Below are positions 14,173 through 50,898 of a stretch of 64,000 bases of DNA, in pieces. The stretch lies in IMG/VR virus record IMGVR_UViG_3300035704_000005; one strand, written 5' to 3'. Numbering within the stretch: position 1 is the first letter of the stretch; each line of letters opens with the position of its first letter. Position numbers and translations under genes: made by a program. A model generated the notes under the pieces. That model saw nothing but the letters and a program-made list of their open reading frames with translations, was not told the origin of the DNA and ran no database searches. Origin of the DNA: an uncultured virus (IMG/VR IMGVR_UViG_3300035704_000005) (lineage: Duplodnaviria > Heunggongvirae > Uroviricota > Caudoviricetes).

Positions 14173-14945
14173 TAAAGGAGGTTTCATTAACTAAAGGGTT
14201 AGTCGCCACAGTAGACGAAGAGGACTGGGACCTAGTAAGTAGTTATTTATGGCGGGCTCACGATGCCCGAACGACCTACTACGCTGTTACATCTGGGGAC
14301 AGTAGCGATTTAGTAAGTATGCATAATATGTTGCTAGGTAACTCTTCTGTCAGTGTAGTAGACCATAAAGATGGAAATGGTTTGAATAACCGCCGAGGTA
14401 ATTTACGTTCGTGTACTCGCAAACAGAATGCAGCTAATCGAAGATTAGCTACCAATAATAAATCGGGCTACAAAGGTGTGCATTGGAGCAAAACTAGGCA
14501 TAAATGGGTGGCACAAATAGGTGTCGATAAAAAATGTATTAATCTAGGGGCATTTATTGATCCATGGGAGGCTGCACAAGCATATAACACTGCCGCGTTA
14601 ATAGAATGGGGCGAATTTGCGCTGCTTAACACACCATCTGGCTTGTCTGCACCAACACCAAAAAGTCACACAATTCAACGACCTTCAACACCAACTATTC
14701 TTGTTGTTGGGTCTGAAGTCACTACAACAGAAATTGCAGCGTATATTGGGGCAAACGGATCTCGCTCAGCCAATGCATGGCTGCGACGACATGGTCTTAT
14801 ATCTGTGGGCAGACAGCCAGGACATAAAGGTGAGAATTTGTATGCCGCAGACGACGTGATTACGGCTAAATCACATATGCCTGGGCAAGGGGTGGGCGGT
14901 GGGTGGGCTAAGCATGCCCGCCGCGATGGAGTAATTAAAAACTAA
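14169..14945 (+). CDS. HNH homing endonuclease with AP2 domain and C-terminal HTH
   Basis: LTKG..A.VDEED, VDHKDGNGLNNRRGNLR, N.SGYKGV...W.AQI...LG.F...EAA.AYN.AA...GEFA.LN; visibly more AT-rich than neighbours. Confidence 0.88.
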   Translation: MIKEVSLTKGLVATVDEEDWDLVSSYLWRAHDARTTYYAVTSGDSSDLVSMHNMLLGNSSVSVVDHKDGNGLNNRRGNLRSCTRKQNAANRRLATNNKSGYKGVHWSKTRHKWVAQIGVDKKCINLGAFIDPWEAAQAYNTAALIEWGEFALLNTPSGLSAPTPKSHTIQRPSTPTILVVGSEVTTTEIAAYIGANGSRSANAWLRRHGLISVGRQPGHKGENLYAADDVITAKSHMPGQGVGGGWAKHARRDGVIKN

Positions 14946-16702
14946 TGATTACTGAACTTCGCGACTACCAAGTCCAAGCTGCGACGGCCTTGCATAATGG
15001 GTACGCCAAGCGGCTGCACCGCCTTGGTATTCAGCTGCCGACCGGATGCGGAAAGACAGTTGTTATGGCCGACATTTCCAGTAAGGTGCTGAGCAGCGCG
15101 CGAACTAGTAGTGTGAACATCTACCTACACCGGGACACCCTGGTTGGTCAGACAATCAAGAAGCTGCTTGAGGCGGGCATTGATCCCGACGATATCGGGG
15201 TAGTCAAAGCTAACCGGAATGAAGTACATAAAAGATGCCGAGTGATCTCAGTTCACTCGCTGCGCAACGTCGAACGGATGAAGCAGCTACCCAAGCCGCA
15301 GCTCAACATCGTGGATGAGGCGCATGTGTCGGTGTCCCCTACCTACCGGCGGCTCTACGAGTACCTCGGAGACTCGGCCTATCTCGCGGGCTTCACAGCT
15401 ACGTGGATGCGCTCAGACCGGCTGGGCCTAGGAGATGTCTGGGAAGAGGTGGTGTTTCGCCGCTCGATCAGCTGGGCCGTAGAGCGGGGCTATCTCGTAC
15501 GGCCCTACCCGCTGCAACTGGGTGGCGACCTCGACATGTCGAAGGTGCGCACCTCGGCCGATGGCGACTACAACGACAACGATCTTGGAGAGGTGGTGAT
15601 GGTCGAGGATCTACTAGAAACTGTGGTACGGGCTTACCATCAGATCACGCCTGGGCTTTCCATGGCGCTATTTGCTCCTACCCAAGCTAGTGCTCGATTC
15701 TTCGCTAATGGTCTTATGAACCCGCCTCCGCACCTTGGCGTGCCTTCGGTGCCCGTTGCCGAGATTTTCGCCAACACCAAGGACCGAGACCGTAAATGGG
15801 CCTTCCATGGTTTCGAGACCGGCGCGATTAAAGTTCTAGTATCCTGCTCGGCGCTGGCTGAAGGCTGGGATTCGCCGAGGTGTGACGGAGTTTTCTCACT
15901 TCGGCGCACGAAATTTGCTGGTCGATTTATCCAAGAAATGGGGCGCGCATTGCGCCCGTGGATTAACGAGAAGACCGGCATTAAAAAAGATCGCGCTTGG
16001 ATTATGGATTTTGTCGGTACGCTGGACGAAAAAGACATGGCGGCCGCGGTTGATCTATCAAAGACACCTGAGAGAGATGATGAAGATATCCCGCTGGATT
16101 TGTTGGAGTGTGACGAGTGCGGAGAATTCCGGGTGCTCCGCTACGTCAAGCGGGTAGACCAGAGTCTGTGCACCGACTGCTTCAACAAGCTGGATCTCGA
16201 TCCGGAAGGCCGAGAGTATACAGGTAAGCGGATTGACGGCATTATTCAGGTCGATTTATTCGAGCGCACCTCGGCACGCTGGCTGAAAACCGATTTCGGT
16301 ATGCCTTTCATCGCCACCAGCGATAAAAGCAAAAGTGGCAAAGCACGCGTCTATTTTATTGCTCTTATCAATGGCCGGTACAACGTAGGGGTTACTGGAT
16401 CAGTAAAAAATTTTACAGGAGGTTATTGGATTTCCGAAGGTATCTCTTTGGCAGAGGCCCTGACAGTAGGCAGTGATGCAGCTCTAGAGGATGACCCCAC
16501 AATTACTCACAAGAAAGCAGCATGGCGTCAAAATAACCGATTCGCAACAGCTACCCAAGAACGGTTTGCACAAAATCTAGGGCTGGATGTAACGGGTATG
16601 ACCATGGCCGATGCCTCGGATGCCATCACAATCAAACTTGCCAGCCGAACCCTCGGCACGGTGTATCGAGGTCTCTACCAGAGTGTAGAGGTATCAGTAT
16701 GA
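14945..16702 (+). CDS. superfamily II DEAD/DEAH helicase
   Basis: LRDYQ, PTGCGKT, DEAH, GFTAT, EGWDSP, QEMGRALR. Confidence 0.92.
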   Translation: MITELRDYQVQAATALHNGYAKRLHRLGIQLPTGCGKTVVMADISSKVLSSARTSSVNIYLHRDTLVGQTIKKLLEAGIDPDDIGVVKANRNEVHKRCRVISVHSLRNVERMKQLPKPQLNIVDEAHVSVSPTYRRLYEYLGDSAYLAGFTATWMRSDRLGLGDVWEEVVFRRSISWAVERGYLVRPYPLQLGGDLDMSKVRTSADGDYNDNDLGEVVMVEDLLETVVRAYHQITPGLSMALFAPTQASARFFANGLMNPPPHLGVPSVPVAEIFANTKDRDRKWAFHGFETGAIKVLVSCSALAEGWDSPRCDGVFSLRRTKFAGRFIQEMGRALRPWINEKTGIKKDRAWIMDFVGTLDEKDMAAAVDLSKTPERDDEDIPLDLLECDECGEFRVLRYVKRVDQSLCTDCFNKLDLDPEGREYTGKRIDGIIQVDLFERTSARWLKTDFGMPFIATSDKSKSGKARVYFIALINGRYNVGVTGSVKNFTGGYWISEGISLAEALTVGSDAALEDDPTITHKKAAWRQNNRFATATQERFAQNLGLDVTGMTMADASDAITIKLASRTLGTVYRGLYQSVEVSV

Positions 16703-21892: not shown

Positions 21893-22422
21893 AGACCAGA
21901 GCAGAGATGCTCCAAGAATGGAGCGATGCGTCCGGCGGAGATAACCTGTCGTTGGAAGCTTGGGCTGATCTCCGTAAGAGCCTGCTCAATGAGGAGTGCA
22001 GAGAGCTGTGCGACGCTATCGATCATTTCGTAGCCACAGGCGACCCAAAACCAATGGCGAAAGAGTCGGCCGATGTAGAATATGTGGTCATCGGTGCGGC
22101 GCAGCGGCCTGGGATTGATCTGGAGGTTGCTTTTAAGGAGGTGCACAGCTCGAATATGAGTAAGTTCGGACCAAACGGAGAAGTGTATGAGCGTGCGGAC
22201 GGCAAGATACTCAAAGGGCCGAACTACCGAGAGGCCGACATGACCGCGGCTGTATCTGGCAGCGAAGATCTCCTAGGGAAGACAGAGACGGTGCTCGATT
22301 GGATAGAAGGTGCACTGCGCTCGATACCGCCGGTCACCAGGGCAGTTCTTATTGTCTTCCTCGCTTGTGCTCTTAGTGCGCTGGCCATAAATTCAGGCTA
22401 TCTACTTGCAGGTGGGCGGTAG
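21889..22422 (+). CDS. MazG-like / PRA-PH nucleotide pyrophosphohydrolase with C-terminal TM helix
   Basis: EECREL, KESADVEYV, AFKEVHSSNMSK, RADGKILKGPNY. Confidence 0.85.
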   Translation: MKTRAEMLQEWSDASGGDNLSLEAWADLRKSLLNEECRELCDAIDHFVATGDPKPMAKESADVEYVVIGAAQRPGIDLEVAFKEVHSSNMSKFGPNGEVYERADGKILKGPNYREADMTAAVSGSEDLLGKTETVLDWIEGALRSIPPVTRAVLIVFLACALSALAINSGYLLAGGR

Positions 22423-28545: not shown

Positions 28546-28686
28546 CTACCTAGATTGAACGGCATCAACAAGGGCCAATATCGCATGAATCTGCGCCATA
28601 GCAGCTATCACATGCGGGTCTGTGGTCGTATCTTCATTAATCTCGATTAGACTGAGTAAACCTTCAGCTTCGTCTCTGTGACTCAT
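28546..28686 (-). CDS. small hypothetical protein (not in ORF track)
   Basis: MSHRDEAEGLL...AMAQIHAILALVDAVQSR; AAGGAAAGG SD. Confidence 0.6.
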   Translation of the reverse strand: MSHRDEAEGLLSLIEINEDTTTDPHVIAAMAQIHAILALVDAVQSR

Positions 28687-28704
28687 TGCCTTTCCTTCCT
28701 TTCA

Positions 28705-28896
28705 GGAGAGCTGCCCGCCAGAGTCGAACATGGCGTTCCTGCTACGTGATTCAGGCTATCTACCCGCGGCAGCGTGGGTGCCCCGCTGAGCGGGGCTGTT
28801 GGGGGTCTTTAGCCCCCGGTCGCATCGGTCTCACCTTGCCTTTCGTCTTCGCCCTCAGCAGCAAGCCAGTCGGCCCTGTCCGGGCGCCTGCTGCTT
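28705..28896 (-). ncRNA. candidate structured RNA (multi-branch, T-loop-containing)
   Basis: Intergenic; a 10-bp leading stem, then a closing stem enclosing six hairpins, one with GTTCGACTC. Structure inferred by hand only. Confidence 0.5.
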
Positions 28897-29071
28897 AAAC
28901 CGAAGCACTCTCCTGGGCCAGAGCCTCGGCTATCTCACTCGGCCGATAGAAGCTGATTTCTCGCTCTAGCAATTTGACTCTGCTGATCAGCCAGCCCGCA
29001 TCAAAGCTCTGCACACAATGGTCTGTGCGAAAATGCTGCTCGATGACGGCAAACCGTTGTGCGTCCGTCAC
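28895..29071 (-). CDS. small protein with D.GWLI motif (not in ORF track)
   Basis: MTDAQRFAVIEQ...FDAGWLISRVKLLERE; GTGA overlap. Confidence 0.6.
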   Translation of the reverse strand: MTDAQRFAVIEQHFRTDHCVQSFDAGWLISRVKLLEREISFYRPSEIAEALAQESASV

Positions 29072-29524: not shown

Positions 29525-29556
29525 TTCCCTGACTCCCTGATTTCGTTTCCTTCAAC

Positions 29557-29594
29557 CTGTCTAGCTCGACAGTACGGCCTGTCTAGCTCGACAG
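29557..29594. promoter_or_regulatory. tandem operator CTGTCTAGCTCGACAG x2
   Basis: Identical 16-mers at 29557 and 29579 (22-bp spacing), upstream of the leftward gene. Confidence 0.7.
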
Positions 29595-35232: not shown

Positions 35233-35270
35233 ACCCTAGCCGGACACTTGGTGCCTGTCAAGCTCGACAG
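35233..35270 (-). promoter_or_regulatory. SigA-type promoter TTGACA-N17-TAGGGT with overlapping CTGTCGAGCTTGACAG operator
   Basis: Minus strand reads CTGTCGAGC-TTGACA-GGCACCAAGTGTCCGGC-TAGGGT. Confidence 0.75.
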
Positions 35271-35678: not shown

Positions 35679-37796
35679 TCACAACGCCTCCAAGGCAACG
35701 TTGATGTCTGAGGCGGTGTAGCAGCTGCAATTGCCTCGAAGCTTGTTGCGCATGCTCTTGGCCTTGGGTGCTTTGTCGCCCAGCTCGGCCCGCAGGCGCT
35801 TGGCCAGCTCCGTAGCGTCGATCTCCTCATTGCAGTTCTCAGTGATCCACTCAGCGGCCATCGCGCTGGGCAGCTTGCCGTCCACCGGATCTATGTCGTC
35901 CAGTGCGGCGGCCAAGGCCGAGAGGGTGTTAGGCACTACCTGAGCGTCTACAGTGCCGCCGGAGTTGCCGCTGCCGTCGCCGATGCGGGGCAGTCCATCT
36001 GCCAGCCGACGAGCCCGGCGCCGTTTGATTTCGTCTTCTGGCATAGGCGTCCAGCTGCAATAAACAACCGGGTCGAATCCCGCGGCATTGACATAGCAAC
36101 GACCGGCATCATTCTTGGCCTGTCCTCGAACTGCCGACTTGAGCAGGTTCGGTGCCCAGCCAGCCCGACGCAGATCAGGAGAGAAGATCTCGTTAGCGTC
36201 GTCCTGGGTGCAAGGCCCGACGAGCCAAGCCATCATCTGCGAGGAGATGCCTGTGGTTCCCGAGTCGGACTTGCCGGTTTTCTGTGCTGCGGTCACCAAG
36301 GTAACCCAGTGCTTGCTGCCGGTCCGGGCGATAATCTCGATCCTGCTCGCCAAATCAATAGTACCCTTCGGCTGTCCATTGAATTTCGTAGCCTGAGGCA
36401 TCTCATCAATGATGAGGTGAATGCTGGGCTCGTTATAAAACTCGGCCAGGTGAGCATTCCACTCACGGCCCTTAGAATTGGGGTCATCGCTTCGCGCAAT
36501 ATCACCCAAGATCTTGGCCCGACGCTTAATGATTCCGAGTAGCCAATCAAGCAAAGCTTCGGCATCCTCCGGGGTGTAGGCCACCCGCTGAATGCAGTCA
36601 CCGTAGATCGGGAACAGCGGCCCCTCGGTAAGGTCGATACCGACAGCTACGGCATTGTAGCAAGCAAGGATAGCTTCGATTACCGCACTGACGAGACCCT
36701 CGCTTTTACCGCCACCCGATTTGGCGACAATACCAACATGCACCCCAGCGAAGTGCACCCGGAATGGCATCTTGGTCTGAGACTTGCCGAGGAGGAACCC
36801 TTCGATCACCGACTTGGATTTCGTCGGCACCCAAGGTGCGATAGGAACGTCCGTGAACGGATCGCCATGCTTGATGGTCAGGATTCGGCGAGTCGCTACC
36901 GCGGGCACGTCAAGTACCCGGATTGAGCGCAGCGCCGCACCGATAGACCGCTCAAGCGAGCGAACATGTGCCTCCGTGATGTCCTGGTAGGTGGAGAGGT
37001 TTTGTATCCACTCCTCACGATCAAAATCATAGGTACAAATACCATCCACCCGTACCAGCGGGTGACTGCTACCGTCGATACCCACAATCTCGTTAAAAGC
37101 TGACTGGATCGAATCCGTCAGTTGCTTATAAGGCATGCCCTCCCGTAGCGGCTCTCGGTACACTGGGGTGAATTCTGTTTTCTTCTCGACCCCAGCACGG
37201 CCGATCAGATCGAGGATAACCACTAGACTAATAAGGACAGCCCAGAAATAAGTAAGGTTGGCAATGTACAAATAAGCCATGCTGCCCGCGGCCACGAGAA
37301 CAGCGATAATCGAAGCCCAGATGCGATAACCGTGGCTCTTGTGCCGACTAGCCAGTGTGCGAGCCTTAAGAGGTCCCTCAGCTACTTGCTGCGCAGCATC
37401 GAGGTGCACCGCGGTAACCCACTTGGTGTAGGCCACGACGCACTTGCCACAGCCGCACCACACTGGCCGGACAACTTCTGTCCAAACGCCTTTGGGCGCC
37501 TTGATAAAAGCCCAGTTAATGAGGATGCCGGGCACCTTAGGCGCAGCATGCTGAAGGCGGGCCTTGACGTATCGCCGATCAAGCAGTGTCAAAGCGTGCT
37601 TGTCTACCCAGGCCCAACCCTTCGGCTCTTCGTCGGGCGAGGCTTCCCATTTGACTACCTCGGAATTTACGACGTCCGGGTATTCAGGATCGGGCTGTGC
37701 GCGCTCGAATCGCCGAAGCCACGCGCGCCAGCGCGAAGGCTTATCGTCGTCCGGCGGTGGCGCCGGGCTGGGCTGGTTGAGATCAGTAATGGTCAT
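35679..37796 (-). CDS. TraB-like FtsK/SpoIIIE DNA translocase
   Basis: Two TM helices, Walker A AKSGGGKS, Walker B LIIDE, RTGSKHWVTLVTAAQK motif, C-terminal wHTH-like domain; AGAGGTG SD, ATGA overlap. Confidence 0.85.
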   Translation of the reverse strand: MTITDLNQPSPAPPPDDDKPSRWRAWLRRFERAQPDPEYPDVVNSEVVKWEASPDEEPKGWAWVDKHALTLLDRRYVKARLQHAAPKVPGILINWAFIKAPKGVWTEVVRPVWCGCGKCVVAYTKWVTAVHLDAAQQVAEGPLKARTLASRHKSHGYRIWASIIAVLVAAGSMAYLYIANLTYFWAVLISLVVILDLIGRAGVEKKTEFTPVYREPLREGMPYKQLTDSIQSAFNEIVGIDGSSHPLVRVDGICTYDFDREEWIQNLSTYQDITEAHVRSLERSIGAALRSIRVLDVPAVATRRILTIKHGDPFTDVPIAPWVPTKSKSVIEGFLLGKSQTKMPFRVHFAGVHVGIVAKSGGGKSEGLVSAVIEAILACYNAVAVGIDLTEGPLFPIYGDCIQRVAYTPEDAEALLDWLLGIIKRRAKILGDIARSDDPNSKGREWNAHLAEFYNEPSIHLIIDEMPQATKFNGQPKGTIDLASRIEIIARTGSKHWVTLVTAAQKTGKSDSGTTGISSQMMAWLVGPCTQDDANEIFSPDLRRAGWAPNLLKSAVRGQAKNDAGRCYVNAAGFDPVVYCSWTPMPEDEIKRRRARRLADGLPRIGDGSGNSGGTVDAQVVPNTLSALAAALDDIDPVDGKLPSAMAAEWITENCNEEIDATELAKRLRAELGDKAPKAKSMRNKLRGNCSCYTASDINVALEAL

Positions 37797-38698
37797 GACG
37801 CCACCTCTTGACGATTCTTGCGCCACTCACCCAGCAGTTTCTTGCAGGTGTGCGGGCTGCCGTTGATGCCCTCGGCCAGCTTGGCGGCCGTGGTCTGTGC
37901 GTTGTGGTGTCGATCCAGCCAGGCAAATGCGGTGTCGCGTACGTCCGAGCGGCGGGCAGGTGCTGAGGTGGAAACTGGCTGGTCAGAGCGTTGCCCGCGA
38001 TCGGGGAAACTAAGTTTCCGCTGGTCAGGGCGTGAGCGAGCAGTGTGCTCAGCCCTGTAAGCAAACGGCGTTACCGTTGTAGGTGAGGGGCTAGCCCCCA
38101 ACGAGCGTTGTAGCTGAGATGATCTTTCTAGTGCTGGCGCCGCAGCTGGTAGAGCTGAGGTTGCCGTTTCGAGCTGGTTGCTAGTGGCCGAGATCCGCTC
38201 AGATGGAGCAACGATCGGGGTATTTTTTGCCAGCGCGCGGGCCTCTTCTTCAGCGAGAGCCGCAACCTCGACGGGCGTGATCACCCGCGCACACTCGCCG
38301 CGGTACTCGGCCAGTCCGACCATGATCAGGGGCACGAACGCGTGCACCAAGATCAGCGGAATTTTCAGCACTACCCGGATGGGCAGCACGATGGCCGCAA
38401 GACAGTTGAGGACAACAGACATCGCTGCGGTGCCCCAGCGCAGTGCTCGGCCCCACGGTCCGGACGTCAGACCGATGCGCTCTAGCAGGTGATCTCCCGT
38501 GAGCACCACCCACAGCGCGACGTCTACGGCCAAAGCTGTCATAGCGCCTGAGGCAATACCCCACCCGTCATTTTGCAGGGTGTAGAAAGACGTAACGCCA
38601 GAGATGGCCGAGGCTGACATCGTGATACCTGCACAGGCCCAAATCCCGGCATTCATCTTCTGTCGGGTGAGACGCACCGTAGCAATGTCGAGCGTCAT
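37793..38698 (-). CDS. SpdA/DUF2637-like membrane protein with C-terminal HTH
   Basis: Four TM helices (ALAVDVAL, LRW...SVVLN, VHAFVPLI..LAE), linker, then TTAAKLAEGINGSPHTCKKLL. Confidence 0.75.
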   Translation of the reverse strand: MTLDIATVRLTRQKMNAGIWACAGITMSASAISGVTSFYTLQNDGWGIASGAMTALAVDVALWVVLTGDHLLERIGLTSGPWGRALRWGTAAMSVVLNCLAAIVLPIRVVLKIPLILVHAFVPLIMVGLAEYRGECARVITPVEVAALAEEEARALAKNTPIVAPSERISATSNQLETATSALPAAAPALERSSQLQRSLGASPSPTTVTPFAYRAEHTARSRPDQRKLSFPDRGQRSDQPVSTSAPARRSDVRDTAFAWLDRHHNAQTTAAKLAEGINGSPHTCKKLLGEWRKNRQEVAS

Positions 38699-38931
38699 TC
38701 GTTGTCGCCACCTCGGGCAGCGCGTAGCACGCGTGCTAGTACGTTGGCCTGGGCAAAGCTGAGCGGCATCGGCCCGCATCCGGGGTAGCAAATGTGGATT
38801 TCCCAGCCGCCAGGAGCTTTTAGGAAAATGAGTTGACGGCGTTCCCGAGTCTCTGAATTCTCGGTCTCGATAACGACTGAGCCGTCTTTCCTCACGGTTA
38901 CCGGCTCAATCGGCCAAGTTGATTCACTCAC
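38695..38931 (-). CDS. hypothetical protein, first gene of the transfer operon
   Basis: GAGGT SD, ATGA overlap with the SpdA-like gene. Confidence 0.65.
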   Translation of the reverse strand: MSESTWPIEPVTVRKDGSVVIETENSETRERRQLIFLKAPGGWEIHICYPGCGPMPLSFAQANVLARVLRAARGGDNE

Positions 38932-40281: not shown

Positions 40282-40327
40282 CTGTCGAGCTTGACAGGTG
40301 GTGCGCAGGTAGGTAGGATCCTACCTA
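40282..40327 (+). promoter_or_regulatory. SigA promoter TTGACA-N17-TAGGAT with two palindromes
   Basis: CTGTCGAGCTTGACAG over the -35; perfect 18-bp TAGGTAGGATCCTACCTA over the -10. Confidence 0.8.
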
Positions 40328-41207: not shown

Positions 41208-41258
41208 CTGCCGAGCTTGACAGGTGTTGCGCAGGTAGGTAGGATCCTATATAGAAGG
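41208..41258 (+). promoter_or_regulatory. second copy of the SigA promoter/operator cassette
   Basis: Near-identical to 40282-40332; TTGACA 41217, TAGGAT 41240. Confidence 0.8.
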
Positions 41259-47732: not shown

Positions 47733-47805
47733 GGGTCGTTAGCTCAATTGGTAGAGCATTCGCCTTTTAAGCGAAGGGTTCTGGGTTCGAGTCCCAGGCG
47801 GCCTA
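47733..47805 (+). tRNA. tRNA-Lys (anticodon TTT)
   Basis: Full cloverleaf: GCTC/GAGC D stem, TTCGC-CTTTTAA-GCGAA anticodon arm, CTGGG-TTCGAGT-CCCAG T arm; CCA not encoded. Confidence 0.93.
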
Positions 47806-47836
47806 CGTAATAACAACGATCTCAGGAGGGGCCGTA

Positions 47837-50376: not shown

Positions 50377-50898
50377 ATGCGTAATGTAATCGGCACTGTT
50401 TACCTGCTGTGTTTCAGCCGGGCGTACAAACATGCCAAGCATTACACAGGATGGGCAAAGAATCTCGAAGCTCGGCTTGCTGAACATGCGAGCGGCCGAG
50501 GCGCAAGGCTGTTAGAGGTTGTCAAAGAAGCTGGGATTACGTGGCAGCTCGCCCGAACATGGACGGGTGACCGGTATCTAGAACGTCGGCTTAAACAAAA
50601 AGGCGCCGCATCGCGGTGCCCTATCTGCCAGGCACGAAAGGTGGTGAGCACGTTGATAACGAAAGACTGGAGGCACCGGGCGGCATGCCGCGACGCGGAT
50701 CCTGAGCTGTTTTTCCCGCTAGGCGACGCGTTCACCAAGGCTGAGCTGGGCCAGCTCGCAGAGGCCAAGGCCGTCTGTCGGGGCTGCCCGGTGAAGGCCG
50801 AGTGCCTGGCTTGGGCCTGCAACACAGGCCTCACGCACGCGGTTGCCGGTGGCACGACCGAGGACGAGCGTCGGACACTACGGAGACTGGCATCGTGA
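50377..50898 (+). CDS. GIY-YIG nuclease domain fused to a WhiB-family regulator
   Basis: GTVYLL..HYTGW..L..RL..H..G.GARL; then W..RAAC...DPELFFP...AK.VC..CPV..ECL...GG.TE.ER. Confidence 0.85.
   Translation: MRNVIGTVYLLCFSRAYKHAKHYTGWAKNLEARLAEHASGRGARLLEVVKEAGITWQLARTWTGDRYLERRLKQKGAASRCPICQARKVVSTLITKDWRHRAACRDADPELFFPLGDAFTKAELGQLAEAKAVCRGCPVKAECLAWACNTGLTHAVAGGTTEDERRTLRRLAS

Follow-up and report, generated by a model that had tools for sequence, protein, structure and literature searches.

The DNA analysed here (hereafter the window) is a stretch of 64,000 nucleotides from an uncultured soil phage of actinobacteria, the host of which is likewise uncultured. Its genes include those for WhiB, DNA polymerase A, a primase-polymerase, a helicase, a lysin and tail proteins, and the DNA polymerase is about 26% identical to those of the best cultured phages. 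One further record (G001) is identical to the window across the 1001 bases compared. The minus strand carries a run of small, overlapping genes that is interrupted by a gap of about 190 nt, and this gap holds the element considered here, which has a GC content of 65% as compared to approximately 57% for the window. It is preceded by a gene for a 58-aa protein (28895..29071, minus strand), a homologue of which flanks the same slot in the related phage G004, and followed by a Shine-Dalgarno run and a 46-aa gene of PHROG 16141 (28546..28702, minus strand). The original prediction placed an intergenic structured RNA at 28705..28896. The gap is there, yet the element is not strictly intergenic, as it overlaps the last six codons and the stop codon of the upstream gene; the predicted 5' boundary was wrong in that it missed 19 upstream bases, and the element reaches 28915. 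No tRNA genes lie near the element in the window, where ARAGORN and Rfam call a single canonical tRNA, a tRNA-Lys at 47733, and no tmRNA. This tRNA-Lys(UUU) is intact (47733-47806, plus strand); its copy in G004 (L102:15068-15128, minus strand) is devoid of most of the anticodon arm.

Four relatives from four studies (of 18 runs listed) were compared with the window. All four keep the region of the element, three of them across its whole length and one from 28727. The aligned blocks that hold it differ by 21/344, 77/1122, 40/520 and 159/1808 bases, approximately 6-9%, as against about 16% for most blocks further downstream; as these blocks also hold coding genes, the figures do not speak for selection on the RNA itself. 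One relative (X13) has retained the element next to a swapped downstream gene. Another (X16) carries a 1-base insertion in the 10-bp helix of the long arm described below, with no compensating change among the differences listed. Two of the five members of the upstream protein cluster end as in the window, and the other three (P0135-P0137) differ from the codon at which the RNA starts. This change of the protein tail exactly at the start of the RNA suggests that the element is an optional cassette, or modular insert.

Several other features of the window were recorded. A near-palindromic 17-nt site is present in five copies (29556-29572, 29578-29594, 35254-35270, 40282-40298 and 41208-41224), giving nine strand matches where 0.39 are expected, and is probably an operator or promoter element. 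Two of the copies lie in tandem (29556..29594, minus strand) about 640 nt upstream of the RNA, in a region conserved in both G004 and a second related phage, G005; those at 40282-40298 and 41208-41224 precede promoter-like sequence. An FtsK/SpoIIIE-like protein and a membrane protein (35679-38791, minus strand) are also conserved in both phages; this pair, unusual in a phage, is reminiscent of the modules for DNA transfer in conjugative elements of actinomycetes. The helicase (14945-16702, plus strand) has several relatives of about 900 aa, some of them with Pfam PF14528 or PF05204, which suggests that the long relatives carry intein insertions. Finally, a gene at 50377-50898 (plus strand) encodes a WhiB domain after a weak GIY-YIG-like N-terminal region.

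Predicted fold of the element

Folding and shuffling delimit a candidate RNA of 213 nt (28703..28915, minus strand) with a closed multibranch fold. It is probably a real structured RNA, longer than first perceived. An outer, acceptor-like stem of 9 bp, in which 28915-28907 pairs with 28711-28703 at a mean pair probability of 0.93, closes the fold; its 5' strand (28907..28915) lies within the last codons of the upstream gene, and its 3' strand (28703..28711) encodes no CCA. Between these strands come, in order, an arm of 59 nt, three well-supported hairpins, a 40-nt segment of ambiguous pairing, the T-arm and four to five linker bases. The long, irregular arm (28847..28905, helix probabilities 0.83-0.99) occupies the position of a D-arm, includes the 5' hairpin of the original prediction, and contains the upstream stop codon together with a GGCGAAG motif (28853-28847). 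The first hairpin (28822..28839) bears a Shine-Dalgarno-like AGGTGA and an AUG. The second (28801..28817, 5 bp, probability 0.96) has a 7-nt loop of anticodon-loop shape, which in tRNA numbering we take to read C32, U33, AAA, G37 and A38, and the third (28780..28796, probability 1.0) is a GC helix of 7 bp. The T-arm (28716..28735) consists of 5 bp with one bulged U, a closing G-C pair at 28729-28721 and the loop UUCGACU (28728-28722).

Mean pair probabilities of 0.8-1.0 are reached by the closing stem, the long arm, the three hairpins (28839-28822, 28817-28801 and 28796-28780) and the outer T-stem, and the segment 28779-28738 is ambiguous (0.13-0.64). Every stem listed in the original prediction is present in the minus-strand sequence. 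The stem GAGGGC/GCTCTC that was supposed to close the structure does not survive the inclusion of the upstream bases: its ensemble probability falls to about 1e-12, as calculated with this stem and the helices ACCC/GGGT, CCTG/CAGG and that of the T-arm all imposed. The full T-arm and the outer stem coexist with an ensemble probability of only 0.16, in energies that omit tertiary contacts and modifications. A short D-like hairpin at 28907-28892 was dropped, its probability being about 6e-8.

The 3' portion can adopt a second arrangement, a nested tRNA-like module of 64 nt without a D-stem (28710..28773, minus strand), which emerged from constrained folding and from a comparison made by hand with the G005 tRNA-Met. 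In it, GCTGCC (28773-28768) serves as partner of the linker that follows the T-arm, in a 6-bp helix GCTGCC/GGCAGC, which stacks on a T-stem of 6 bp to form a 12-bp top half, with the outer stem continuing below. Such a 12-bp top half is what tRNA-processing enzymes measure. The module also has a GG-bearing linker and an anticodon-like arm with an 8-nt loop. Its best fold, at -99.2 kcal/mol, lies 0.6 from the free optimum of -99.8 kcal/mol; the GCTGCC/GGCAGC helix has a probability of 0.2, the module an ensemble share of 0.035, and the module with its anticodon-like arm one of 0.0008. At shorter bounds, the 12-bp top half forms unforced when the pair span is limited to 80-120 nt. By hand comparison the spacing of 28773-28710 matches the G005 tRNA-Met, with the 5' half of the D-arm missing, and MAFFT did not recover this hand alignment. 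These 64 nt are not a decoding tRNA.

Contents of the slot and sequence searches

In G004, a complete genome whose helicase is 72% identical, a free-standing endonuclease VII reading frame (L103:14339-14917, plus strand) lies between homologues of the same flanking genes, and no trace of the element was found in that genome. In G005, with a helicase 50% identical, the corresponding interval of 1.9 kb contains a tRNA-Met among other genes. The leader of this tRNA-Met shares 17 of 20 bases with 28836-28817, a modest likeness given that the leader is largely a ribosome-binding site and an AUG. A scan of IMG/VR with the leader pattern returned four further matches, as compared to about six estimated by chance. 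In one of them (L116), the 7-nt loop of the hairpin 28801..28817 is shared on a different stem (E 0.16). A leader composed of a strong Shine-Dalgarno sequence, an AUG and a hairpin is common to L116:1480-1545 (plus strand), L118:1480-1545 (plus strand) and window 28801-28845 (minus strand); it opens reading frames of 15, 4 and 21 codons, all with proline as third or second residue, and may be a small motif shared by three phages or chance.

Both related phages carry tRNA-shaped elements of their own. The one in G004 is an intergenic, oversized element of about 155 nt at approximately 88.9-89.1 kb (L105:8916-9071, plus strand; z only -1.45), in which a closing stem of 9-10 bp abuts a perfect T-arm, accompanied by a long variable-like arm and a large insert at the position of the D-loop, where the loops of the inserted hairpins read CAU and UCA. 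It is nearer to a tRNA outline than the window element, was missed by ARAGORN and Rfam, and has a weak match to mascRNA. The element of G005, about 90 nt near 15.5 kb (L106:15506-15597, plus strand), combines a 7/5 branch with a greatly lengthened middle arm; ARAGORN classes it as Asp, and Rfam makes no call. Neither oversized element shares sequence likeness with that of the window.

Rfam gave no match to the element, which its tRNA model (RF00005) leaves unlisted up to E 10. BLAST against cultured phages and plasmids produced chance matches, with none in T4, and four pattern scans of IMG/VR found the identical record only, leader-like matches aside. A model (R1), of low power since it was built from two identical copies, gave one partial match of 45 nt across 151 genomes of one actinobacterial class, and the self match plus fragments in sets of 20 and 15 further sources. 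DNA searches of 201 and 401 genomes yielded a single 22-nt match of coding appearance. Altogether, no full-length homologue beyond the close relatives was found in the collections searched. Scans with the neighbouring proteins identified G001-G005 as the only real relatives, and those of metagenomes and genomes gave weak loci only. Among the papers searched, with thin coverage of subscription journals, none was listed that describes this element or establishes a family of tRNA look-alikes of unusual size in phages.

A reading frame of 21 codons lies within the element (28760..28825, minus strand), a possible minigene that received no support as a protein, its AUG being preceded at 5 nt by the AGGTGA. 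A coding role was rejected: none of five variants of reading frames in the element was found in the protein collection by an exact look-up, which is sensitive to the start residue. The antisense reading frame across the element has no homologue, and a read-through frame of 44 codons, which includes the 21-codon frame and would be shifted by the X16 insertion, has no family-level match and two weak ones (E about 1e-4) in much longer proteins. An antisense role was likewise dropped, as an exact 15-nt match to 22391-22405 (minus strand) is equalled in length in 11 of 99 control windows. Hammerhead ribozymes have a core of stems I-III with a cleavable triplet; the core-like string at 28862-28842 is buried in the long arm, inspection shows neither stem I nor a cleavable triplet, and Rfam reports no match. 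Likenesses to HDV-like ribozymes, group I introns, FMN and T-box elements and RNase P, sought by inspection against their known motifs, were dropped with no Rfam match.

Alternative explanations

The alternative that survives best, which we nevertheless consider unlikely, is that of a decaying tRNA gene with an old leader, in which the 3' 64 nt would be a pseudogene missing half of its D-arm and the other hairpins would be incidental. The intact tRNA-Met in the corresponding interval of G005 and the similarity of its leader argue for such a history, as do the T-stem bulge and the 8-nt anticodon-like loop, which resemble damage; tRNAs of this clade do decay, as the incomplete tRNA-Lys of G004 illustrates. 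However, decay leaves both the 9-bp outer stem, which spans 213 nt, and the 59-nt arm unexplained, and the region is kept in four relatives with at most one indel in it among the indels listed.

It is rather improbable that the element acts at the level of the mRNA, as a control or stabilising element in which a stem over the upstream stop codon, a minigene with its own Shine-Dalgarno sequence and AUG, and a stem beside the downstream Shine-Dalgarno sequence couple translation to folding and to downstream expression. Its overlap with the end of the upstream gene is consistent with this, as are the spacing of the AGGTGA ahead of the 21 codons and the recurrence of the same order of Shine-Dalgarno sequence, AUG and hairpin in G005 and L116. 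Yet GGTGA followed by AUG is how starts are ordinarily signalled in these phages, and the leader pattern recurs no more often than chance predicts. Moreover, the downstream Shine-Dalgarno region (28702-28687) is not part of the stem and stays unpaired when folds extend to it, the downstream gene is the one swapped in X13, and the T-arm would go unexplained.

The possibility that the hairpins arose by chance in a GC-rich spacer, with no function as RNA, appears to us equally improbable, and here the statistics of the fold come to bear. At the bounds of the original prediction the fold is barely better than shuffled sequence, with a z of -1.54 on the minus strand, where 14 of 200 shuffles do at least as well, and of -1.63 on the plus strand. 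At the corrected bounds z is -2.9 to -3.2 on the minus strand, where one of 200 shuffles is as good, and -3.2 to -3.4 on the plus strand; since the plus strand scores alike, folding energy does not pick a strand, and the assignment to the minus strand draws on the T-loop and the direction of the genes. Among 150 real genome tiles, 15 match the stability of the element after correction for GC, and the raw energy is lower than that of the element in at least eight of 150 tiles of the minus strand, raw energies being the basis of the tile comparison. Folding energy alone does not single out the element. The T-arm is more discriminating: one of this kind occurs in only five of 20000 shuffles of the element. 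The tRNA-type T-loop of the original prediction is present. T-arm-like strings do arise by chance in large collections, and 300 shuffled whole windows contained 175 such T-arms, but a closing helix of at least eight Watson-Crick pairs accompanied just three of them, and the two T-arms of the real window are those of tRNA-Lys and of the element; these figures flatter the element, because descriptors and bounds were chosen after viewing it. Chance also fails to account for a 190-nt gap that is kept within an overlapping gene run in four relatives, and for the tRNA or endonuclease found at this place in others.

Least plausible, and in our estimate highly improbable, is a Y-RNA-like nature, which the original prediction had suggested and which would here mean a decoy or tether for a host Ro60 (Rsr) protein. 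GGCGAAG fits the YrlA motif GNCGAAN0-1G, and, as described in PMC4201824, YrlA and Yrn1 share with the element tRNA mimicry through a T-arm, paired ends in a long stem and a short Ro-binding motif, the arm of D. radiodurans Yrn1 being oriented differently from that of YrlA. In the same source, the stem-loops of YrlA are ordered as T, acceptor-like and D, its motif is near the 5' end, and it lies within 4 kb of the Ro60 gene on the same strand (PMC4201824). In the window element, by contrast, the T-arm comes last, and the motif is internal, some 60 nt downstream of the corrected 5' end, paired (probability 0.93) and found in 3517 of 20000 shuffles (17.6%). A TROVE gene was found in none of the four records searched, two of them complete, nor among the 52 window proteins scanned, and no Rfam Y RNA matches the element. 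The antitermination role that had also been proposed received no specific support.

A possible tRNA-derived cassette and its known counterparts

The explanation we regard as best, with belief and doubt about evenly divided, is that the element is a tRNA-derived, non-decoding RNA cassette, excised by host tRNA-processing enzymes, of the kind of T4 RNAC and RNAD and set in a variable slot. The earlier reading of a tRNA-like non-coding RNA that is not a tRNA holds, and gains strength from the corrected boundary and the contents of the slot in related phages.

The closed fold is a computed one, and for transcription, processing and function we infer the following course. The candidate RNA would be transcribed together with the genes beside it. 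Its T-loop elbow would then be recognised by host RNase P and a 3'-processing nuclease, and the RNA excised, with 28773 as the likeliest 5' cut; this inner site is favoured because cleavage at 28915 would leave the upstream message with no stop codon. The product would be a stable tRNA look-alike of 64 nt or of the whole 213 nt, and the cut would also part upstream from downstream messages. As the outer stem overlaps the end of the upstream gene, it can form only when no ribosome is there, and a terminating ribosome would hold it open. In the last and weakest step, the RNA may occupy tRNA-binding or tRNA-cleaving proteins of the host as a decoy that presents them with an elbow and anticodon-shaped loops while itself staying out of translation. 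This role is our best guess, by analogy with the proposal in PMC10264068 that phage tRNAs counter host tRNA (anticodon) nucleases. We also entertain, as a long shot, a more elaborate version in which a tRNA is nested in a larger tRNA-shaped shell: one 3' strand would serve the T-arm, the inner 12-bp top half and the outer stem, translation of the upstream end would switch the fold, the anticodon-shaped loops would act as a multivalent decoy against host anticodon nucleases, and the G004 element would be a second, independently built example.

Several known systems share parts of this architecture. The 3' 64 nt resemble class I tRNAs (RF00005; the G005 tRNA-Met) in the T-loop, the GG linker, the anticodon-like arm and an acceptor strand at tRNA-like spacing. 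They depart from a canonical tRNA in having no D-stem, a 6-bp acceptor, a 6/6 instead of a 7/5 branch, a bulged T-stem, an anticodon-like loop of 8 rather than 7 nt, and no CCA. In the tRNA-like domain of tmRNA and in mascRNA, RNase P processes a top half that lacks a full D-stem; the element differs from tmRNA in that it is far too short and lacks an alanine-type acceptor at the outer stem. Allo-tRNAs (8/4 and 9/3), some of them in phages, are described as translationally active cloverleaves with a continuous 12-bp branch and a long variable arm (PMC5389517). They share with the element an acceptor-like stem of 8-9 bp, whereas the outer stem of the element is set off from its 6-bp T-stem by 4-5 nt and extra arms are present.

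The closest counterparts in layout are RNAC (species 1, 139 nt) and RNAD (species 2, 119 nt) of T4, small phage RNAs for which the account in PMC9697503 gives no known function. Both are annotated in the T4 tRNA cluster, beside a homing endonuclease. When folded, the annotated RNAC runs from a long, irregular arm through another hairpin to a 3'-terminal T-arm, in the same order as the element, which has the layout of the RNAC/RNAD kind, itself no defined sequence family: a closed multi-arm fold that ends in a T-arm, with no decoding arm. The likeness is one of layout and not of homology, and model R1 found no match on the T4 sequence (L125). The element, at 213 nt, differs from the T4 RNAs in placing four or five arms ahead of its T-arm, in the bulge of the T-stem and in a possible nested module; in the window it has no neighbouring tRNAs, and it overlaps a coding end. 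RNAC has been detected by Northern blot, whereas the window element is known here from sequence alone. To call the RNA novel was an overstatement, since tRNA-shaped, stable phage RNAs with no assigned job are an old kind, within which the nested layout is unusual. This clade offers the natural comparison, in that the slot is occupied in the window by a tRNA look-alike and in G004 by an endonuclease gene, G005 has a genuine tRNA nearby, and other oversized tRNA-shaped RNAs occur as well. Should the RNA prove to be processed and to work as a decoy, the old unexplained class of RNAC and RNAD would gain a function.
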